Below are positions 1 through 8,717 of a stretch of 8,717 nt of DNA, piece by piece (within the stretch, counting starts at the first letter, position 1; every line of letters begins with the position of its first letter). The position numbers were made by a program, and so were the translations under genes. The stretch is from a virus. Taxonomy: Duplodnaviria; Heunggongvirae; Uroviricota; Caudoviricetes. The stretch lies in IMG/VR virus record IMGVR_UViG_2724679073_000005. One strand, written 5' to 3'. Below the pieces are notes generated by a model that saw nothing but the letters and a program-made list of their open reading frames with translations, did not search any database and was not told the origin of the DNA.

Positions 1-332
1 CTAACTTTGCAACAGTGCCACCGGATTTACGCGGTGAGTTTATCCGTGGTTGGGATGATGGGCGAGGTGTGGATGCGGGAAGGGTCATCTTAAGCATACA
101 GGGGTGGTTAACAGGAAGTCATTATCATAATATTCGGTCATGGGACGCGTGGGATAACACGGTATTGGTGCCAAATGACAGAGGGGGGGATAGTCTGTTG
201 TCGACAGATAACGCCGTCCGGCAAGGAGCGATTAATGGTAAATTTACCAGTCAATACAGAACGGAGTTATCTGGGGGGAATGAAACCCGCCCACGTAACA
301 TTGCCTTCAATTATATTGTGAGAGCAGCATAA
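1..332 (+). CDS. Tail fibre protein, C-terminal variable (receptor-binding) cassette in expressed orientation; 5' end truncated by window edge
   Basis: Frame open from position 3 to TAA at 330-332 (NFATVPPDLRGEFIRGWDDGRG...ETRPRNIAFNYIVRAA). No credible start or RBS inside the window; the GTG at 15 is an ORF-caller artefact. Stop overlaps the ATG of the downstream chaperone gene (TAATG). Shares the GEFIRGWDDGRG block and the C-terminal 16-aa motif with the three minus-strand cassettes. Confidence 0.8.
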   Translation, partial: NFATVPPDLRGEFIRGWDDGRGVDAGRVILSIQGWLTGSHYHNIRSWDAWDNTVLVPNDRGGDSLLSTDNAVRQGAINGKFTSQYRTELSGGNETRPRNIAFNYIVRAA

Positions 333-943
333 TGGATAATGCGATATTAAATAGCGAACTTATAGCCATACAGGCAGGAAACATTATCGTTTATAACTAT
401 GATGGTGGTAATCGGGAATATATTTCTGCATCAACTGAATATCTTGCTGTTGGCGTTGGTATTCCGGCAAATTCTTGTTTGGATGCTCCAGGCTCACATA
501 AAGCAGGTTATGCGATTCTCCGTTCAGAGGATTTAAGTTCATGGGAGTATGTGCCAGATCATCGTGGCGAAACTGTCTATAGCATTGACACTGGGAATCC
601 CGAAGAAATCACGGTGTTGGGTGACTATCCGGAAAATACAACCACTATCGCCCCGCTAACACCATACGACAAATGGGATGGAGAGAAATGGGTGGTTGAT
701 ACTGAGGCTCAACATAGTGCAGCTGTAGAGGCAGCAGAAACAAAACGTCAGTCATTGATTGATACTGCGATGGATTCCATTAGTCTGATTCAGTTGAAAT
801 TACGGGCTGGACGGAAGTTGACGCAGGCAGAAACCACGCAGCTTAACTCCGTGCTAGATTATATAGACGAGCTGAACGCGATGGATTTAACCACGGCACC
901 AGATCTCAACTGGCCTGAAAAACAACTTTCTACAGCCAGTTGA
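332..943 (+). CDS. tfa: Tail fibre assembly protein (Tfa; Mu U / P2 G / lambda Tfa-type chaperone)
   Basis: 203-aa ORF translationally coupled to the tail-fibre stop. Size and position are typical of Tfa. C-terminal region (...LTQAETTQLNSVLDYIDELNAMDLTTAPDLNWPEKQ) resembles the conserved Tfa C-terminal domain ending in a (N/E)WPE motif, as recalled from P2 G. Confidence 0.8.
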   Translation: MDNAILNSELIAIQAGNIIVYNYDGGNREYISASTEYLAVGVGIPANSCLDAPGSHKAGYAILRSEDLSSWEYVPDHRGETVYSIDTGNPEEITVLGDYPENTTTIAPLTPYDKWDGEKWVVDTEAQHSAAVEAAETKRQSLIDTAMDSISLIQLKLRAGRKLTQAETTQLNSVLDYIDELNAMDLTTAPDLNWPEKQLSTAS

Positions 944-948
944 TATAA

Positions 949-1467
949 TTAATCCGCCCTCACAATATAATTAAATGCAATATTACGAGGGCGGGTTTCT
1001 AAGCCAGCAGTACCTAAATTAGCTACGGACTGTTTATATGTTTTAAAAGTTCCATAATTAGGGGCTGGCAATCCTGCATCGCTTGTGTTCCCCCATCTGA
1101 TAACTCCCGTATTACCACTAGTAGCCCATGCCTCGTCAAAGTAGAAATTAATTGAGCGGTCAGTTGCTACGGTTGATTTTGACGGTAATCCGTGAGCATG
1201 ATCCTCCGTTGCATATCCTTGCTCGCTTAAAATAGAGCGACCAGAGTCAATCCCTCGCCCATCATCCCAGCCACGGATAAACTCACCGCGTAAATCAGGT
1301 AATTTTAACGTTGGGTAAACCTTTGCCAGATTTGGGTACTTTTCAGAAGAAAATGCTGCTCCGTTACATTTCAGCCACCCCGTTGGCGGAGTGGCTGAGG
1401 GCCACGGAACAGGTACGCCAACAGGCAATGCTGAGCCTTCCCCCAAACCAACGTTTTTATGCCGCCC
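949..1467 (-). CDS. Silent alternative tail-fibre C-terminal cassette A (promoterless 3' gene segment)
   Basis: Minus-strand frame open from 1467 down to stop at 949-951: GRHKNVGLGEGSALPVGVPVPWPSATPPTGWLKCNGAAFSSEKYPNLAKVYPTLKLPDLRGEFIRGWDDGRG...ETRPRNIAFNYIVRAD. No ATG or RBS; the TTG 'start' at 1444-1446 lies inside the crossover-site candidate. Convergent with tfa, 5 bp apart. Confidence 0.7.
   Translation of the reverse strand, partial: GRHKNVGLGEGSALPVGVPVPWPSATPPTGWLKCNGAAFSSEKYPNLAKVYPTLKLPDLRGEFIRGWDDGRGIDSGRSILSEQGYATEDHAHGLPSKSTVATDRSINFYFDEAWATSGNTGVIRWGNTSDAGLPAPNYGTFKTYKQSVANLGTAGLETRPRNIAFNYIVRAD
1256..1467 (-). repeat. ~210-bp repeat unit (copy 1 of 3) covering the site-proximal conserved part of cassette A
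   Basis: Near-identical to 1769-1981 and 2228-2441 by direct comparison. Encodes GEGSALPVGVPVPWPSATPPTGWLKCNGAAFSSEKYPNLAK(V/A)YPT(L/N)KLPDLRGEFIRGWDDGRG. Boundaries approximate. Confidence 0.8.
1438..1463. other. Candidate 26-bp serine-invertase crossover site (site A), hix/gix/cix-like
   Basis: TTCCCCCAAACC-AA-CGTTTTTATGCC. Left 12-bp half matches the invertase half-site pattern TTnTCnnAAACC in 8 of 12 positions; central AA dinucleotide; right half degenerate. Sits at the 5' edge of cassette A and overlaps the stop codon of cassette B. Confidence 0.55.
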
Positions 1468-1981
1468 TTACGATGTAATTAAATGCAACGTTGCGAGGGC
1501 GAGTTTCTGTACCTACATTTCCACTAATTTCACCATAACGTTTAACACTACGAGAGCTAATAGCTCGTAGTGAGGAAGGCACCTTATGACCGGGTTCGTC
1601 CGTTTTAACTATTCCCCCGTCACCGTATGTAGCTAGTATTCCTGGATTTACGCCTTCCCGTGCACTTCCTGCGGCGAGTCCGCCCCCTGTCCATAATTCC
1701 ATATAGTGTGCATGGTCCAAAATTGTGTGTGGCTGCCAATTAAGCAAAGCGCGGCCAGCATCCACCCCGCGCCCATCATCCCAGCCACGGATAAATTCAC
1801 CGCGTAAATCAGGTAATTTTAACGTTGGGTAAACCTTTGCCAGATTTGGGTACTTTTCAGAAGAAAATGCTGCACCATTGCATTTCAGCCACCCCGTTGG
1901 CGGTGTGGCTGAGGGCCATGGAATAGGTACACCAACGGGCAGCGCCGAGCCTTCCCCTAAACCAACGTTTTTATGCCGCCC
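1457..1981 (-). CDS. Silent alternative tail-fibre C-terminal cassette B (promoterless 3' gene segment)
   Basis: Manual translation shows the minus-strand frame open from 1981 to stop at 1457-1459 (~174 codons); the ORF track only reports 1457-1765 from an internal GTG. Begins GRHKNVGLGEGSALPVGVPIPWPSATPPTGW...PDLRGEFIRGWDDGRGVDAG and ends ETRPRNVAFNYIVRAA. Its stop codon lies inside the crossover-site candidate of cassette A. Confidence 0.7.
   Translation of the reverse strand, partial: GRHKNVGLGEGSALPVGVPIPWPSATPPTGWLKCNGAAFSSEKYPNLAKVYPTLKLPDLRGEFIRGWDDGRGVDAGRALLNWQPHTILDHAHYMELWTGGGLAAGSAREGVNPGILATYGDGGIVKTDEPGHKVPSSLRAISSRSVKRYGEISGNVGTETRPRNVAFNYIVRAA
1769..1981 (-). repeat. ~210-bp repeat unit (copy 2 of 3), cassette B
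   Basis: The cassette C-terminal-proximal ~65 bp is identical to copy 1; the site-proximal ~135 bp is about 90% identical. Boundaries approximate. Confidence 0.8.
1952..1977. other. Candidate 26-bp serine-invertase crossover site (site B)
   Basis: TTCCCCTAAACC-AA-CGTTTTTATGCC, one mismatch to site A, same orientation. At the 5' edge of cassette B, overlapping the stop codon of cassette C. Confidence 0.55.
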
Positions 1982-2441
1982 TTACGATATAATTAAAGGC
2001 AATATTACGAGGACGGTTTTCATTAGCTGTTGGCACGACACGAGAGGCGTCGAATCCAAGGTCATCGGTTTTGCCTATATCAGTTGTGTTATTCGGCATT
2101 CTCGCAGATCGTGTTCCTGCATCATAAAAAGCCCCTCTGATTGCATCAAAAGACATGCCAATCCCGCCATCTGCGAACCCCTCAATATTTCTTATTGCAT
2201 CCCCCTGTGAAGATAATAATTGTCGCCCGGCATCCACACCACGTCCGTCATCCCAGCCACGAATAAATTCACCGCGTAAATCCGGCAATTTATTAGTAGG
2301 GTAAGCCTTTGCCAGATTTGGGTACTTTTCAGAAGAAAATGCTGCTCCGTTACATTTCAGCCACCCCGTTGGCGGAGTGGCTGAGGGCCACGGAACAGGT
2401 ACGCCAACAGGCAATGCTGAGCCTTCCCCCAAACCAACGTT
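1971..2441 (-). CDS. Silent alternative tail-fibre C-terminal cassette C (promoterless 3' gene segment)
   Basis: Minus-strand frame open from 2441 to stop at 1971-1973. N-terminal 42 residues are identical to cassette A (identical DNA over ~135 bp), followed by a distinct middle and ENRPRNIAFNYIVRAA at the C-terminus. No start codon or RBS of its own. Confidence 0.7.
   Translation of the reverse strand, partial: NVGLGEGSALPVGVPVPWPSATPPTGWLKCNGAAFSSEKYPNLAKAYPTNKLPDLRGEFIRGWDDGRGVDAGRQLLSSQGDAIRNIEGFADGGIGMSFDAIRGAFYDAGTRSARMPNNTTDIGKTDDLGFDASRVVPTANENRPRNIAFNYIVRAA
2228..2441 (-). repeat. ~210-bp repeat unit (copy 3 of 3), cassette C
   Basis: The site-proximal ~135 bp (2305-2440) is identical to copy 1 (1321-1446); the distal part has diverged (KAYPTNK versus KVYPTLK). 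Boundaries approximate. Confidence 0.8.
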
Positions 2442-2449
2442 TTAGTCTT
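2424..2449. other. Candidate 26-bp serine-invertase crossover site (site C), adjacent to invertase gene
   Basis: TTCCCCCAAACC-AA-CGTTTTAGTCTT. Left half and core identical to site A, right half diverges. Lies 55 bp upstream of the invertase ATG, the usual position of the gene-proximal site in Gin/Cin/Hin systems. Confidence 0.55.
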
Positions 2450-2503
2450 AATCCCTACCTATACCAACGATGTATTTTTAACTAAACAAAGAGGTTGTTT
2501 TTC

Positions 2504-3076
2504 ATGCAAATTGGCTACATTCGTGTGTCAACAAATGACCAAAACACAGATTTACAAAGAAATGCACTGAACTGCGCAGGATGTGAACTGATTTTTGAAG
2601 ATAAAATAAGCGGAACAAAGTCAGCCAGACCAGGCTTGAAAAAGCTGCTCAGAACGTTATCAGAAGGAGATACGCTGGTTGTCTGGAAGCTGGATAGGCT
2701 TGGCAGAAGTATGAAACACCTTATCACGCTTATAGAGGAGTTGCGGGAAAAAGGTGTTAATTTCCGTAGTCTGACAGACAGTATTGACACATCAACACCC
2801 ATGGGGCGTTTCTTTTTTCATGTCATGGGTGCTTTAGCAGAAATGGAACGTGAATTAATTGTTGAGAGAACACTGGCCGGACTGGCAGCTGCACGCGAAC
2901 AGGGACGCATTGGCGGACGTCGCCCGAAGTTGACAAAAGAACAACATGAGCAAATAGCGAGGTTGATCGAAAATGGCTACAGCAGGAAACAGTTGGCAAT
3001 TATTTACGATATCGGTGTATCGACGATTTATCGTTATCATCCTGTAGAGAAGCGCCAAACTCAATCTGAGCTGTAA
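2504..3076 (+). CDS. Serine site-specific DNA invertase, Gin/Cin/Pin/Hin/Min family (resolvase-type catalytic domain plus C-terminal HTH)
   Basis: MQIGYIRVSTNDQNTDLQRNAL... carries the catalytic-serine motif (RVST), the conserved VVWKLDRLGRS and FRSLTDSIDTSTPMGRFFFHVMGALAEMERELI blocks, and the GRIGGRRPKLT hinge, followed by an HTH tail. ATG at 2504 has an AAGAGG RBS 10 nt upstream. Exact ortholog (cin, min, pin) cannot be decided by eye. Confidence 0.95.
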   Translation: MQIGYIRVSTNDQNTDLQRNALNCAGCELIFEDKISGTKSARPGLKKLLRTLSEGDTLVVWKLDRLGRSMKHLITLIEELREKGVNFRSLTDSIDTSTPMGRFFFHVMGALAEMERELIVERTLAGLAAAREQGRIGGRRPKLTKEQHEQIARLIENGYSRKQLAIIYDIGVSTIYRYHPVEKRQTQSEL

Positions 3077-3196
3077 TTCTAATGCCGCGTCGGTGTAATT
3101 TATCTTGATAGAATAGGTACATTTATCGCGCGGCACATCAATTCGATGTATCTAGCGCCTGCTGACCGCTAATGAAAACTGTTCTCGAAATGTTGT

Positions 3197-3215
3197 CCCT
3201 AGTCCGAGACTAGGG
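3197..3215. promoter_or_regulatory. Perfect 8-3-8 inverted repeat (CCCTAGTC-cga-GACTAGGG); candidate operator or late-promoter element
   Basis: 19-bp dyad in the non-coding leader between the invertase and the downstream operon. No U-run follows, so it is not an intrinsic terminator. A TANNNT hexamer (TAGGGT, 3211-3216) overlaps its right arm, positioned 3' of the dyad centre. Function unverified. Confidence 0.35.
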
Positions 3216-3511
3216 TATCACCTCTGGAAAGCATACGCAGAACCTTTTTTAACCCAGGGTGCCCAGCTTTTTTGCTGCTCGCCTTATTCGCAAAAATTAG
3301 CTCACATCCTGCGCTTTCAAGTGCTTTTCACTGCATAGCTGTGTTTTGTTCATTTGTCTATATGCGTACATAGCCTATTAGCATATTTTCTGCCCACTAT
3401 CGTTATTTATTGCAAGCTACAGGTTTTAATTAACAAAACCAGTGTGTGTGGAAATCACAAAGTGCATACCGTTCTCAAATGTTGTTCAACTTACTGTTGT
3501 ATAGGTAAAAA

Positions 3512-3775
3512 ATGACATTTTATGTACATATCGTGATGTTATCCCTTCTTGGTGGGGTGTATTCGTATTTGAGTGGGCTATGTGAAAACCGTTACGAGTC
3601 TTCATGCAAGAAATTGCTGGCCGAATGTATTTCCGCCGTACTTGCTGGCTTTATTGGCATGTATCTCGCGGAATATAAGGACATGAATGAAAGCCTTCAG
3701 AGCTGCATGGTTCTTATTTTCAGCGCCAATAGCAGGCTTATTATTGAAGGTTCCAAAAGTCGGTTGAATAGGTAA
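3512..3775 (+). CDS. Hypothetical small membrane protein (two predicted TM helices; possibly holin-like)
   Basis: 87-aa ORF with two hydrophobic stretches (VHIVMLSLLGGVYSYLSGL and LAECISAVLAGFIGMYLAEY) and a weak AGGT RBS. Co-oriented with and just upstream of the lysis/dar operon. Confidence 0.35.
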   Translation: MTFYVHIVMLSLLGGVYSYLSGLCENRYESSCKKLLAECISAVLAGFIGMYLAEYKDMNESLQSCMVLIFSANSRLIIEGSKSRLNR

Positions 3776-3820
3776 GTCTCTTATGCAACATAACCGGTTG
3801 AGAAGTTACTTTGCATACCA

Positions 3821-3846
3821 TTACCTCCTGACAACGTAGGAGGGAA
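3821..3846 (+). promoter_or_regulatory. Hairpin that sequesters the Shine-Dalgarno of the 3850 ORF
   Basis: CCTCCT (3824-3829) pairs with AGGAGG (3838-3843) across an 8-nt loop; the stem extends by two more pairs beyond one mismatch. The GGAGG RBS for the GTG start at 3850 sits inside the 3' arm. Confidence 0.35.
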
Positions 3847-3849
3847 CTT

Positions 3850-4179
3850 GTGCTTGACACACAGGAATTAGCTCCAGTTGCTATTGCGCTCCTGCTTTCA
3901 GTAATTGGTGGGATAGGCACGTTCCTGATGGATGTCCGAGACGGTCGCCAGTCTGGCAATTTGTTGGGATTGGTTACGGAGATCTTTGTTGCAGTGACAG
4001 CTGGCGCGGTGGCGTACCTATTGGGGCAACACGAGGGCTGGGAGTTATCAATTACGTACTTAATGGTAACGATAGCCAGCAATAACGGTCATGAGGTGAT
4101 TTCAGGGATGAAACGAGTGAATATCGATAGCATTCTGAATGTTCTTACAAGTTTGGTGAAAAAGGGAGGCGGGAAATGA
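3850..4179 (+). CDS. lydA: Holin-like small membrane protein (2-3 TM helices, basic C-terminus); candidate P1 LydA homolog
   Basis: 109-aa ORF with GTG start and a strong GGAGG RBS. Hydrophobic helices (LAPVAIALLLSVIGGIGTFL and LLGLVTEIFVAVTAGAVAYLLG) and a KKGGGK tail. First gene of a coupled operon leading into dar-like genes, as in the P1 lydA-lydB-dar operon. Symbol assigned by architecture, not by sequence search. Confidence 0.5.
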   Translation: MLDTQELAPVAIALLLSVIGGIGTFLMDVRDGRQSGNLLGLVTEIFVAVTAGAVAYLLGQHEGWELSITYLMVTIASNNGHEVISGMKRVNIDSILNVLTSLVKKGGGK

Positions 4180-4619
4180 TTGGCTGGGGTGTATGCGTTC
4201 TTGCGTTAGCCTTAGCCGATCGCTATTTGCTAAAACGCAAGGACATCACGCATTTAGAACTTGGTGATGTGGAAATTAAACCGGGTTTCATCCGGGTGCC
4301 GTTCAAATACCGGTCTAAATTCCCGTTTTTGCGCGGCGCAACGGTCAGATATTGGATCCGCGATGTTCAGAAGCCGACGACAGTGATTGAAGGCGAACAA
4401 CGTTGTTTGACGTCGGCTGAACAGGGCGAAAACAGTGAATGGTTGTACATACCCACTGAATATATGGGTAAAGGAGAGCGACTGTGGCATTTCAACGTCA
4501 TGGTTACGCATGGCGACTCGTTCATTAACCCGTTGTATCGGATTTTCCCTGTTACTCAGCAAATCCGCAGAAGTTACGTAATAAATCTCGCACAGGATGT
4601 GTCAGATGACGAAAAATAA
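4176..4619 (+). CDS. lydB: Membrane-anchored protein; candidate antiholin (P1 LydB-like)
   Basis: 147-aa ORF whose ATG overlaps the upstream stop (ATGA). N-terminal hydrophobic anchor (MIGWGVCVLALALA) followed by a soluble domain. Position between the holin-like gene and the hdf-like gene. Symbol assigned by synteny only. Confidence 0.45.
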   Translation: MIGWGVCVLALALADRYLLKRKDITHLELGDVEIKPGFIRVPFKYRSKFPFLRGATVRYWIRDVQKPTTVIEGEQRCLTSAEQGENSEWLYIPTEYMGKGERLWHFNVMVTHGDSFINPLYRIFPVTQQIRRSYVINLAQDVSDDEK

Positions 4620-5208
4620 GTATGCAACGGTCGATTTTGACCAGGTTAATGAAAAGGGGCTGAAATCCCTTATCGCGGCGATCAATAAAACCGGTGTTAC
4701 GGTAATTGAGGTTGACTCCAGCAACCGCGCAACAACGAAAGATGGCGTTAAAGTTAAAACCGCAAAGCTGGTTCTTAACGACGGACAAATTCTTGCCATA
4801 CAGGTAAACGATACTGGCGATATATCGTCTGTGAGGCTGAATGGAAAAGCTATTCCTAACGCTCAGTCGCCGGATATCAAGACGCTTGGTACCGTCATGG
4901 GGCAAGCGGCCCGCAAAAACTCCGCAAAATTCCAGAAATCACTGATCGCCAAAGCGAAACGTGTTGCCAATCCGGTAGACAAGAAACCGGCAGTAAAATC
5001 CAACTTTCAGCGCCTGCAAGAGGCAAAACAGCGGAATGCTCAGGTGGTTGCCGCTTATAAATCAGCGCAGAACTCGGTGTCTTTCAATCAACAGCAGATC
5101 ACTGATTTGCGGGCGAAGCTGGATAAGGAGACAGGCCGACTCAATAACGAAAAGGCCCGAAATGGCGAACTCAAACGCCGTCTTAAGCAACTGAAAGCAG
5201 GAAATTAA
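4606..5208 (+). CDS. hdf: Hdf-like protein (paralog of a DarA internal domain); putative capsid-associated antirestriction accessory protein
   Basis: ORF track start is 4597, but the ATG at 4606 has an AGGA RBS 8 nt upstream and is the likelier start. Shares a ~70-aa domain with the next protein (LNDGQILAIQV...TLGTVMGQAARKNSAKFQ versus LSDGQTISILF...TLAQVTMKLANLAEKNSAKFQ), then a basic coiled-coil tail. Size (~22 kDa) and position match P1 hdf. Confidence 0.55.
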   Translation: MTKNKYATVDFDQVNEKGLKSLIAAINKTGVTVIEVDSSNRATTKDGVKVKTAKLVLNDGQILAIQVNDTGDISSVRLNGKAIPNAQSPDIKTLGTVMGQAARKNSAKFQKSLIAKAKRVANPVDKKPAVKSNFQRLQEAKQRNAQVVAAYKSAQNSVSFNQQQITDLRAKLDKETGRLNNEKARNGELKRRLKQLKAGN

Positions 5209-5209
5209 C

Positions 5210-7129
5210 ATGGAACAGTTCAATATCAATAAAGGGGTGACGATCAAGCCTGGGCTTGACGTGCTTCCCCCGCCAGTGACTGATGATGAATATCGCGCAT
5301 TAATGGCCGGTGAGGACCGCTATCTGATGACGGAATCCAACACCCTGGAGGAAATCGAGGCTACGTTCTTCTATGACACGCCGATCCACTGGTGTGCTAC
5401 GGATTTACTGGAGGCGATTAGTTCTACTCGTTTGCAGTTACACCGGACCATGCAGGCATTTGTCCGGGCATTGAACCAGAAGCTGAATGGTACCGGAATC
5501 TCTGCGGGGAGTGATAAAACGGGGGATGTGGCCCAGAGCGGCGCGCGCGCGATCGGCGGTGCTGAAATTGGCCGGGCACGTAACGTTAACGGGCTGCCGG
5601 TCCTGCCAGCCATTATTCCGCTCAGTGATGGTCAGACTATCAGCATTCTGTTTCATAGCCCGACAGCGGAAAACCGGATCACCAATAGCGATACGCTGGT
5701 TGCTTTCCAGTTCTTACTGAATAAAAAAGACGTTACTCACACCGTTGCTCCGATGAGTGGACGTGATATGACGCTGGCGCAGGTCACCATGAAACTTGCC
5801 AACCTTGCAGAGAAAAACTCGGCAAAATTTCAGCGTGCGCAGAAGAAGAAAAAAGCCCTTGTTGATGAAATAACCCAACTACAGGCTGACAGTGACCAGA
5901 AAGAGGATGCCATGAGCGACCTCGTGGATCAGGTGGCAGCGGTAGAAGGGCAGAAGGTAGATCTGGAGCAGAAAATTAACGCTGTTGCATCGGAAGCGGA
6001 TTCTCTTTATGAAGAGAATGAGCGTTTGCAGACGGAGATTGATCAGCTCAATCGCACTGGTGGGCGCGATACCATTGCTCCTGCGGGGATGACTGGTGGA
6101 CACTCTCGCGCGATGACGGATCGCCTTGCCAGTATCAAAAATCGTATGCATATGAACGGGGAAGTGACGCTCAGTAATGGTGCATCAATGAAGCAATTCA
6201 TTGAGGACGGCGAAGGGTATATCCAGTTAACCGATTCGGATGGCAGCGTGTACATGATCAAGGCTAAATCCATACAGGGTGTGGACATGGCAGATGCGAT
6301 CGGCAAGCTGTTTAAAGCCTATAAAGCGGGTAATGTATCGGAATACCTGGTCCAACCAGAAGAACATAAACCGGAAAACGTCGAACCTGAACCAGCGGAG
6401 GATACCGGTAGCTCTTCGCCTGAACCAGAAGTCTCTGTAGGTGCATATCGATATGCCCTGCAAATGCGTCCGGCGGCCCCTGGCGCAATACCTGAAGGTA
6501 ACAAAGCAATTCTGCCGCGCCCTGATGAAGGTGACCCGTATTATGAATATGCACGCTACGGCATTGCTACTTACGATACCCCGCTTTCTGATCAGCAAAT
6601 GAGTGAGTACGACCTGAAGTTATTGCCTCGCGAGGATTCTTTCGACTTCCTGGCGAAGACACTTACTAATGGTCCGTTTGGCAAATATGCACAAAAAGCT
6701 CTGGAGCTGGCCACCAGCTCACCAGACGAGTTCCGCGTAATGCTGAAAACTCAGTTTCAAAAAACTTTCCCCAATATTGCGTTTCCGGGGGGCGCTGGCA
6801 CCGAGAAAATGGTGCAGAGCATGATCAATGCATTGCAGGCCGAAGTCGGTGAGATTACTCAGCCAGAACCTGCCCCGGCACAGCCTGATGAAACGGTTAG
6901 CGAAGCAGATGCAGAGGCTAATAAAGCCATTGAATATCTCAATAACGTGATGGATATGCAAAGCACTGACATGGCGGAGATCCGTAACGCCCGGGGCAAT
7001 GTCCGGGAAGCGATTGCAGCCCTTCAGGCTGCCGGACGTTTTGAGGAAAACGAAGAGCTGGTTAATGGCGCTGCTCGCCACCTGGCTGATCTGCTGGTAG
7101 CAATCCAGAAAGCGGGGGTAGCGGCATGA
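5210..7129 (+). CDS. darA: DarA-like protein (phage internal head / defence-against-restriction protein)
   Basis: 639-aa ORF (~70 kDa) with an AGGA RBS. Contains the hdf-like domain, a long heptad-rich coiled-coil (about residues 190-285) and Pro/Glu-rich linkers. Size, flanking hdf-like and 121-aa genes, and position downstream of the tail-fibre invertase match the P1 darA operon as recalled from the literature. Not verified by search. Confidence 0.6.
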   Translation: MEQFNINKGVTIKPGLDVLPPPVTDDEYRALMAGEDRYLMTESNTLEEIEATFFYDTPIHWCATDLLEAISSTRLQLHRTMQAFVRALNQKLNGTGISAGSDKTGDVAQSGARAIGGAEIGRARNVNGLPVLPAIIPLSDGQTISILFHSPTAENRITNSDTLVAFQFLLNKKDVTHTVAPMSGRDMTLAQVTMKLANLAEKNSAKFQRAQKKKKALVDEITQLQADSDQKEDAMSDLVDQVAAVEGQKVDLEQKINAVASEADSLYEENERLQTEIDQLNRTGGRDTIAPAGMTGGHSRAMTDRLASIKNRMHMNGEVTLSNGASMKQFIEDGEGYIQLTDSDGSVYMIKAKSIQGVDMADAIGKLFKAYKAGNVSEYLVQPEEHKPENVEPEPAEDTGSSSPEPEVSVGAYRYALQMRPAAPGAIPEGNKAILPRPDEGDPYYEYARYGIATYDTPLSDQQMSEYDLKLLPREDSFDFLAKTLTNGPFGKYAQKALELATSSPDEFRVMLKTQFQKTFPNIAFPGGAGTEKMVQSMINALQAEVGEITQPEPAPAQPDETVSEADAEANKAIEYLNNVMDMQSTDMAEIRNARGNVREAIAALQAAGRFEENEELVNGAARHLADLLVAIQKAGVAA

Positions 7130-7491
7130 CACTATCAGCTATTGAGTTAATGGATCTCAGCGATAAGTTGGATGCTCTGATGTCCAAAGCGGCTACCGCG
7201 AGTGGCATGGAGTTGCTGGATATCAGCGATGAAATTGACCAGATCATGCAACAGATGGGGTACGGCGCGTCCGGCGGCAGTAGTGGCGAGGAAAAACAAC
7301 CTTCGGTACATGATGGTGTGCCAAAACTGGTTGCTGATTTCCTGGCTGATAAATTCGTCGATCAGAGCACAGATGCATTTATCGGTACCTTGCAGGACTT
7401 GAGTCAATATGTTGGCACATACATCGACCTGGACCAGGTTAAACAGCACACGGCGGCATGGATAGCCGCCAACATTGAAGAGGCAGCATAA
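7126..7491 (+). CDS. ddrA: DdrA-like small acidic protein
   Basis: 121-aa ORF (~13 kDa) with ATGA overlap to the upstream stop. Acidic, with a Gly/Ser linker (GYGASGGSSGEE). Position immediately after the darA-like gene. Confidence 0.5.
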   Translation: MTLSAIELMDLSDKLDALMSKAATASGMELLDISDEIDQIMQQMGYGASGGSSGEEKQPSVHDGVPKLVADFLADKFVDQSTDAFIGTLQDLSQYVGTYIDLDQVKQHTAAWIAANIEEAA

Positions 7492-7503
7492 GGCGTAACA
7501 GGG

Positions 7504-8717
7504 ATGAGCTTAAGCGATCAGGTGGTAATGGCCACCAGCATAGAAACGCTGATCGAGCTGCTTAAGAACCTGCCCGATTATGGGCGGGTTTCGTATGTGG
7601 TGACAGCGAAGGGAGACGAGGTAAAAACAGCGTTTGATATCGTCGATGCCTCAGCTCTTTTGGTATCCAATACTCTGGATGGGAAAATTAATCCTGACTA
7701 TCCCCAGGAACTTCAGCCGCGCGACCGGACCCGCGCATCCAGCCTTCTTCAGGTTAACCAGATATCCAAAGATTTGCGGCCTGCTCAGCTTACTGATTCC
7801 GGTTTATCCAGCCATGGTGCGCCGATAATTGGTGAGGACAATGCCGTTGAGTCAGGTAATGGACGGACCATGGGGATCATCAAAGCCTATCAGGACGGCA
7901 ATGCGGATCGGTATCGTGAGTACCTGATTGATCATGCGACCGAATTCGGCATACGACCTGAAAAGGTTGAATCAATGACGGCTCCGGTACTGGTGCGCCG
8001 CCGGTTAACTAAGGTTGACCGCGTTCAGTTTGCCAAGGACTCAAATATTTCTGATCTTCAGGAAATGGCAGCCAGTGAAAAGGCTTTTGTTGATGCCGAC
8101 AGCATAACACCGGCGATGATGGCGCTTTTTAACCCGTCAGAAAGCGGAGATCTGCTTAGCCGCAGTAATGACGCGTTTATTCGCGGATTTATGACGCAAG
8201 TTGGTGCCACACAGGCGGCTGGCCTTGTAACTGAAGATGGGCGACCAACACGGCAACTTGTAGACCGTATACAAAACGCGATCTTTGCCAAGGCATATAA
8301 GGATGCGCGCCTGGTAAGGATGGTTGCAGAAGAACCTGATCCGGATATGCGTAATGTTCTGACGGCGCTTAATGCGGCAGCCAATGATTTTGTCCAGATG
8401 CAGGCTTTATCAGGAGAAGCGCACAAGCAGGCTGTGACAACTATTGTTGATGGCATTGAGACAGCGGATAGCCTCGATAAAAAGGCGCTGGCGGCATTGA
8501 AAGATGCGGTAGACCTGGTAAGGCAATCGAAGGAGTCAGGCCAGCATATTACCGATGTTATTGCTCAGGGGGATATGTTCAGCGAAACGGCCCCGGAAGT
8601 GAAAGCACTCGCGTTGTTCATCGTCGCGAATAACCGTAGCGCGAAGCGTATGGCCACCGCCTTTAAGTTGATGGCTCAACGTATCAATGATGAGTTACAG
8701 GGCACTGTTGCAAAGTT
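7504..8717 (+). CDS. ddrB: DdrB-like large protein, N-terminal ~404 codons (3' end beyond window)
   Basis: Checked codon by codon: frame open from ATG at 7504 to the window end with no stop. The ORF track misses it because no stop is reached. Follows the ddrA-like gene as in the P1 darA operon. Confidence 0.5.
   Translation, partial: MSLSDQVVMATSIETLIELLKNLPDYGRVSYVVTAKGDEVKTAFDIVDASALLVSNTLDGKINPDYPQELQPRDRTRASSLLQVNQISKDLRPAQLTDSGLSSHGAPIIGEDNAVESGNGRTMGIIKAYQDGNADRYREYLIDHATEFGIRPEKVESMTAPVLVRRRLTKVDRVQFAKDSNISDLQEMAASEKAFVDADSITPAMMALFNPSESGDLLSRSNDAFIRGFMTQVGATQAAGLVTEDGRPTRQLVDRIQNAIFAKAYKDARLVRMVAEEPDPDMRNVLTALNAAANDFVQMQALSGEAHKQAVTTIVDGIETADSLDKKALAALKDAVDLVRQSKESGQHITDVIAQGDMFSETAPEVKALALFIVANNRSAKRMATAFKLMAQRINDELQGTVAK

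Follow-up and report, generated by a model that had tools for sequence, protein, structure and literature searches.

The Min multiple DNA-inversion system of p15B (E. coli 15T-) was reportedly characterized by Sandmeier, Iida, Arber and colleagues in 1990–1992. Six crossover sites are present in p15B, and the logic of its Min system is that inversion fuses the constant 5' part of a gene to alternative 3' ends. The DNA analysed here, hereafter called the window, is a stretch of 8,717 nucleotides from a tailed-phage record (IMG/VR IMGVR_UViG_2724679073_000005). The window derives from a P1/P7-like phage-plasmid of Enterobacteriaceae and covers the portion of a p15B Min-type multiple-inversion tail-fibre locus that lies nearest the invertase. 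Three silent cassettes (A, B and C), which represent alternative 3' ends of the tail-fibre gene, lie beside the invertase gene. A patchwork of identity among the conserved 5' parts of these cassettes, which are termed heads, was investigated, and a segmental gene conversion that copied part of the C head onto A is its likely cause.

The locus is similar to p15B Min in that a P1-like backbone carries a Din-family serine invertase beside a cluster of 3' tail-fibre segments, each of which starts with a crossover site. The window was assigned to the p15B Min type because a Din-type site core starts each silent cassette and because a 97.5% match was found to a plasmid reported with a p15B-like min segment. 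This plasmid, pMCR_SCKP-LL83 (MF510496.1), is reported to have a 5-kb segment that is 99% identical to p15B min at 92% coverage (PMC5786510). Its match to the window extends over 63% of positions 1–3100, and the link to p15B runs via this plasmid. The p15B Min system is also referred to through PMC5786510 and PMC6906374. Unlike p15B Min, the window locus was amputated by the insertion sequence IS26, so that three direct sites are left and the constant part is missing, whereas relatives contain up to nine cassettes. We know of no description of conversion between cassette heads in the p15B papers, and no paper describing conversion between Min cassettes was found in full-text literature searches, the coverage of which did not extend to the primary p15B papers.

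The Cin/C-segment of P1 and the Gin/G-segment of Mu use the same recombinase family, and alternative tail-fibre 3' ends are likewise switched by inversion inside the gene. However, P1 Cin and Mu Gin switch between just two ends at two sites, and each end has an assembly gene of its own, whereas many cassettes and a single assembly gene (tfa) are found here. Ectopic gene conversion is exemplified by the copying of Neisseria pilS to pilE, by Borrelia vls, and by the concerted evolution of rRNA or tuf genes. The present case has in common with these examples the short non-reciprocal copying between diverged repeats, the clustered changes with a paralogous donor and the unchanged state of that donor. 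In contrast to them, switching is performed here by the invertase and not by conversion, and the repeats are not homogenised. Tail-fibre genes are also said to be mosaic, with breakpoints in conserved segments near invertase sites, in work by Haggard-Ljungquist from 1992 and Sandmeier from 1994; this work reportedly addressed long-term exchange among unrelated phages and put forward a role for the invertase in it. The paper of Sandmeier (1994, Mol Microbiol 12:343) is cited in PMC8986868. Unlike such mosaics, the tracts described below arose recently and inside the conserved head, and homologous recombination within a single element accounts for them best. Both the system (p15B Min) and the process (ectopic gene conversion among repeats) were already known, and the present locus provides a well-documented case. 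It adds modestly to a system known since about 1990, and the view of host-range switching is unchanged. Head conversion is expected to have little or no phenotypic effect, because the conserved part is affected and the changes are mostly synonymous.

Identity tracts among the cassette heads

Each silent cassette is composed of three parts, namely, a crossover site, a conserved collar-domain head of ~200 bp, and a receptor-binding tip that is specific to the type. As repeats, the heads are about 85–95% identical to one another, and their amino-acid sequence is nearly invariant among cassettes. Cassettes (head plus tip to the stop codon) were taken from 13 records, consisting of the window and PLSDB records. 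Ten NCBI records with the same A protein were added, 22 records supplied cassettes to the final statistics, and 80 IMG/VR loci were also used. Tip types were defined as clusters at ≥85% identity. Cassette A (949–1452, minus strand; tip type T3) was recognized from its open reading frame (ORF), its collar domain (PF07484, E = 8e-15) and matches of its tip to the structures of T4 gp37 and gp12. Cassettes B (1457–1966, minus strand; T2) and C (1971–2438, minus strand; T4, the inferred donor) were identified from their ORFs, tip clustering and Pfam. The Phage Tail Collar domain PF07484 occupies residues 12–59 in all three.

The comparison of the three heads revealed two overlapping tracts. Positions 1320–1457 of A (minus strand) equal positions 2306–2443 of C exactly over 138 bp, at an offset of 986. 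A preliminary description of the window had equated 1321–1446 with 2305–2440; the tract does exist, but those two intervals are of unequal length (126 and 136 nt) and are replaced by the borders given here. In the other tract, 1256–1359 of A (minus strand) matches B 1770–1873 at 103 of 104 positions, with an offset of 514, and this tract is a remnant of older A/B head identity. Exact identity was found between A 1283–1359 and B 1797–1873 (77 bp) and between A 1256–1281 and B 1770–1795 (26 bp), and the sole mismatch is at position 1282. This A/B identity had likewise been noticed earlier, but in the wrong register (1256–1320 versus 1776–1840, an offset of 520). All three cassettes are identical over 1320–1359, where the two tracts overlap. 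Near the crossover site, A and B differ at 12 positions within 1360–1444, in agreement with the preliminary description.

The order of the variable sites was evaluated statistically. In coding orientation, 12 sites with A=C≠B (1444 down to 1360) are followed by 8 sites with A=B≠C (1319 down to 1297) and then by a mixed portion. With c denoting A=C≠B, b denoting A=B≠C, a denoting B=C≠A and x denoting that all three differ, the 28 variable sites of the 200-bp head read ccccccccccccbbbbbbbbabbbxbaa, which corresponds to 7 runs. Permutation of the site order gave P = 1e-5 for the run count and P = 5e-6 for the 12-site run. Moreover, an identical A/C run of 129 bp, given 16 differences in 200 bp, had P = 1e-5, and the 77-bp identical A/B run had P = 0.005. 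The patchwork that had been pointed out earlier is real and highly non-random (permutation P about 1e-5), and both tracts are longer than chance allows. B departs from A and C at 12 positions within the A=C tract, which affect 11 codons synonymously and 1 non-synonymously. Selective constraint does not account for the A/C identity, because B differs there and mostly synonymously.

Comparison with related plasmids and rival explanations

The nearest closed relative over the cassette region is p160070-MCR (L083), and 18 differences were found in 2,421 bp (window 20–2440). Twelve of the 18 lie within 85 bp of the A head, at 1360–1444 (scan-statistic P = 5e-6), four lie in the B head at 1901–1924, and two are elsewhere; the segment 20–1359 has none. 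All 12 window alleles in 1360–1444 are the alleles of the co-resident C head. The C head itself is the same in the window, L083, L088, L089, L090 and L091, and the window is without any reciprocal product. A non-reciprocal C-to-A transfer in the window lineage is indicated because the clustered changes all correspond to C alleles while C is unchanged. A reciprocal swap is excluded, since C retains its head and only C had this haplotype in the L083-like ancestor. The converted segment has a minimum length of 85 bp (1360–1444, 12 marker sites) and a maximum length of 138 bp (1320–1457). A clustered tract, a paralogous donor in the same molecule (138/138) and an unchanged donor, which are the marks of ectopic conversion, were all observed, and the segmental gene conversion between repeats that had been proposed earlier is borne out by these 12 clustered substitutions.

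The wider set of relatives gave the same picture. The same cluster of 11–12 sites sets the window apart from L086, L088, L089, L090 and L091. Ten more records with an identical A protein showed 8–12 clustered head differences, together with a difference at position 1270 and, in some of them, differences in the site flank. The haplotype of the donor tract in C (2306–2443, minus strand) is native to T4-type cassettes in relatives. This C-like proximal-head haplotype was found with T4 tips in 6 of 17 records, and with a T3 tip in the window only (1 of 20, or 1 of 24 when IMG/VR loci are included). In L089–L091, A and B share one head sequence that starts at the site and extends to about head column 169. 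The window mosaic appears to be an old A/B homogenisation that was partly overwritten by a recent C-to-A conversion. An A-type cassette with a premature stop about 99 codons in was seen in L001 (NZ_CP091679.1, about 8448, minus strand), which is otherwise the closest full-length relative; it is probably a decaying silent cassette.

The conserved heads would serve as substrates for ectopic (paralogous) homologous recombination. According to the proposed mechanism, 85–138 bp of the site-proximal C head would have been copied onto A, which is 986 bp away in direct orientation, and the transfer would have overwritten the site-proximal part of an A head formerly identical to that of B. The resulting A cassette would read, from the site inward, as C-like, identical in all three, B-like and finally its own tip. 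The exchange may have taken place within one molecule or between sister copies, with a short conversion tract as its outcome. Candidate enzymologies are homologous recombination, either of the host RecA type or by phage-encoded functions, and template switching during replication. No Chi sites, which were considered as hotspots, are present in window 1–3100.

An additional patch was detected in a sister lineage. The B-head segment at 1901–1924 (minus strand), which is unconverted in the window, carries a 4-marker internal patch in p160070-MCR and L088 according to the cassette alignment. The patch covers head columns 42–65 (at most 39–85), and ancestral sequence is retained on both sides. It is 24–47 bp long and identical only to the T5-type cassette that is co-resident in these two plasmids. 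The C-to-A and T5-to-B transfers are, judging from the alignments, two independent non-reciprocal conversions, and together they explain 16 of the 18 differences between the window and L083 over 2.4 kb. Short conversions, and not point mutation, make most of the differences between near-identical P1-like plasmids here, and conversions of this kind are frequent in the family. Identity tracts were seen to move between related phage-plasmids, as the preliminary description had anticipated.

Segmental C-to-A conversion by ectopic homologous recombination between heads, in the window lineage, is considered the probable origin of the A/C tract, and several observations weigh against it. The chimeric A head is a singleton, so the event rests on one sequence. 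It is absent from PLSDB and complete E. coli genomes (best match 97.1%), and it was not found elsewhere in IMG/VR loci or by exact-protein look-up. Only 13 bp of homology (1445–1457) lie past the last converted marker on the site side, which is short for classical RecA-dependent resolution. Furthermore, an exact cis donor was found for only 19 of 90 head-difference tracts between less closely related plasmids. Heads are also no more alike within a plasmid than between plasmids, and exchange between different plasmids may be a contributor to the population pattern. Most older head differences are composite and not assignable to intramolecular events, so that the donor search does not separate cis from trans exchange, and only near-clonal comparisons are informative. 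The uniqueness of the chimeric A head among 142 PLSDB and 619 E. coli genome records matching the stretch would also be expected if the A head had been filled or corrected with C-head reads during assembly or polishing, and the window ends exactly at IS26 termini, as is typical of short-read contigs that break at repeats. However, a mis-join requires two switches, the second of which must fall inside the 13 shared bases 1445–1457 because A runs into the 3' end of B and not into the flank of C. The same type of tract replacement occurs between independently sequenced closed plasmids, and over the remainder of the region the window is otherwise identical to a closed relative; an artefact is very unlikely. 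The acquisition of an A cassette with a C-like head from an unsampled P1-like plasmid was regarded as quite unlikely. P1-like plasmids do exchange DNA, the pool of head haplotypes is common to plasmids, heads within a plasmid are no more alike than those between plasmids, and the small share of older tracts with an exact cis donor points the same way. Nevertheless, such a head is absent from the other 23 A-type cassettes and no database match exceeds 97.1%, while the tract equals the resident C at 138 of 138 positions and both flanks agree fully with the closest relative, with zero differences over 20–1359. Import would still require a paralogous C-to-A transfer somewhere, and it is less parsimonious than copying from the identical tract 986 bp away.

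The position of the tract relative to the crossover site brings the invertase into consideration, in line with the type of idea put forward by Sandmeier (1994), either through a Min swap at the crossover site or at a quasi-site in the head, or through Min cleavage that starts repair. The site-side end of the tract falls within 1445–1457, the crossover centre is at 1450–1451, an inverted AACGTTGG quasi-core is present at 1307–1314 in the A and B heads, and the unlinking of head and tip is strongest towards the site. However, the end of the tract at 1457 is expected in any case, because homology stops there. Exchange at the crossover site moves head and tip together and leaves no breakpoint inside the head, the T5-to-B patch lies inside the head between two retained flanks and is not anchored at the site, and the outcome is non-reciprocal, unlike invertase products. 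An invertase-driven exchange is highly improbable on these grounds. The quasi-crossover site AACGTTGG at 1307–1314 was examined as a breakpoint and rejected, as A retains its own bases at 1306–1319. The initiating role of the enzyme can also be considered separately. Double-strand cleavage by Min at the crossover site in an abortive synapse, with repair from the neighbouring head, might start conversion tracts, and this was judged a long shot. No more than 7 bp separate the end of the converted tract from the crossover centre, and the homology past the last marker amounts to only 13 bp, which include that centre. An ordinary RecA exchange is hard to reconcile with so short a stretch, and a break at the site would suit it. 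If Min did initiate repair, the site-specific switch would also drive homologous shuffling of the DNA beside its sites. A scenario without any recombination, in which strong selection to conserve the collar domain and the crossover site produced the identity, is scarcely conceivable. The head does encode a conserved Pfam collar domain with nearly invariant amino acids, but the 12 mostly synonymous B differences within the A=C tract refute this scenario. The ordered pattern of AC|B followed by AB|C (P about 1e-5) and the divergence of orthologous heads (7.8%, against 0.8% for tips) also argue against it.

Head diversity among related plasmids

Recombination in the heads was assessed with 45 distinct heads from closed records. 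The four-gamete test was failed by 715 of 1,081 informative site pairs, the Hudson-Kaplan Rmin was 20 in 200 bp, and the PHI-type P value was 0.0002. When cassettes of one tip type were compared between records, divergence was lowest in the tip (0.8%), intermediate in the middle (3.7%) and distal (4.4%) parts of the head, and highest in the proximal head (7.8%). Diversity within types relative to that between types rose from 0.05 beside the tip to 0.6–0.8 near the site, and 8 of 36 proximal-head haplotypes were found on more than one tip type. These values show that the heads are a shared, freely recombining pool that is only loosely tied to the tips. Assigning a tip to a head makes sense only for roughly the 20 bp at the end of the head, and cassette heads are unreliable for the typing or phylogeny of P1-like phage-plasmids. 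The assembly and polishing of Min-type loci also need care.

The preliminary description had further held that conversion keeps the crossover sites and the shaft-joining residues homogeneous while the tips diverge, and this was not upheld. In the concerted-evolution test with 22 records, heads differed by 11.2% within one plasmid and by 11.1% between plasmids, with no excess likeness; an earlier run with 13 records gave 11.4% and 11.3%, respectively. Several deeply diverged head haplotypes coexist in every plasmid. Because heads within a plasmid are as divergent as those between plasmids, conversion shuffles heads among tips without homogenising them. The uniformity of the head protein points instead to purifying selection on the collar domain (PF07484), since near-invariant head amino acids are combined with abundant synonymous differences. 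The crossover sites are not homogeneous either, because the half-site varies (G/A at 1444 versus 1958). Moreover, same-type tips differ by just 0.8% between plasmids, but their heads by 7.8%.

Locus layout, crossover sites and IS26 ends

A total of 238 PLSDB plasmids match window 20–3100, and these are mostly non-mobilizable E. coli replicons of 90–100 kb. The gene order in the annotated relatives L001 and L002 is a tail fibre protein, a tail fibre assembly protein, several short 'phage tail protein' ORFs, a recombinase, two holins and the darA operon. The window backbone is P1-like, with lydA/lydB and the darA operon present, and the R/S tail-fibre operon was seen in relatives. The 3' part of cassette E (20–332, plus strand; tip type T1), whose head and crossover site were removed by IS26, precedes tfa, as is always the case in relatives. 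The tfa gene (332–943, plus strand) encodes the tail fibre assembly protein (Pfam Caudo_TAP PF02413, E = 3e-30), and it has the same annotation in L001 and L002. E(T1)-tfa-A(T3) is a fixed unit in every record and includes the sole tail-fibre assembly gene; none of the other cassettes is accompanied by a chaperone gene.

Up to 9 cassettes per record and 10 common tip types were detected in the relatives (L001–L002, L083–L092). In L091 (NZ_CP063505.1), the T2 cassette (WP_176477383.1) occurs twice, at 1836 (plus strand) and 4448 (minus strand), with one head difference, so that the invertible cluster contains a duplicated cassette. Annotations of the expressed tail-fibre gene range in length from 1,515 to 2,850 nt (L002, L085–L092). 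The 'constant' part of this gene must also vary in length, because the spread exceeds what the cassette lengths explain.

The serine DNA invertase (2504–3076, plus strand) is intact, comprises 190 aa and belongs to the Din family (Min/Cin-like). The resolvase catalytic domain (PF00239, E = 2e-51) and a C-terminal helix-turn-helix (HTH) domain (HTH_7, PF02796, E = 3e-15) were identified within 2504–3073. Its gene lies 62 bp from the crossover-site core of cassette C, and the invertase is 100% identical to that of seven IMG/VR loci (L003–L009). A recombinase gene of 573 bp is annotated at the same position in related plasmids (WP_001165547.1). The core search located three AAACCAACGTTT cores, one at the 5' end of each of cassettes A, B and C, so that more than two sites are present. 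The core of the crossover (mix-type) site of A (AAACC-AA-CGTTT) is at 1445–1456 within a full 26-bp site at about 1437–1462, and the cores of B and C are at 1959–1970 and 2431–2442; all are on the minus strand. No inverted copy of the core was found in the window, where the three cores are direct repeats. Sites in both orientations are found in intact relatives, in which cassettes lie on both strands.

The window is a shortened remnant of a Min-type system. Cassettes A, B and C are not expressible by inversion within the window, although the invertase gene is intact, because the sites are all direct and the constant gene part is gone. In intact relatives, different cassettes are fused to the long tail-fibre gene in different records, and the different inversion isomers among closed relatives imply that inversion would be active in the family.

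IS26 delimits the window on both sides. Positions 1–19 (minus strand) are the terminal 19 nt of an IS26 copy with the 14-bp inverted repeat GGCACTGTTGCAAA; they are the reverse complement of 8701–8717 and cut cassette E. These 19 nt were considered as part of cassette E, and this was rejected in view of their identity with the IS26 end. Positions 8701–8717 (plus strand) are the first 17 nt of a second, inverted IS26 copy, are identical to the IS26 end, and cut ddrB, which encodes a ParB domain protein (ddrB-type, from 7504 onward; ORF and Pfam). The termini GGCACTGTTGCAAAGTT... at the window ends agree fully with the end of the 820-bp IS26 that is annotated in L086. Every database match begins at window position 20, and relatives read differently at both IS26 junctions. 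Because both ends are IS26 termini and relatives differ there, the P1-like segment of 8.68 kb (20–8700) is flanked by two inverted IS26 copies. As a consequence of IS26, the head and crossover site of cassette E were lost, ddrB was cut, and the cassettes do not adjoin the constant part of the tail-fibre gene. This arrangement suggests an IS26-mediated inversion or a fragment captured in a resistance plasmid.

Downstream of the invertase, at 3160–3200 (plus strand), 36 nt are 81% complementary to the end of cassette C (2000–2035). The translation reads ..TANENCSRNVV.. as compared with ..TANENRPRNIA.. in cassette C, as in a decayed inverted cassette 3' end, and this segment resembles what an older cassette or rearrangement would have left behind.

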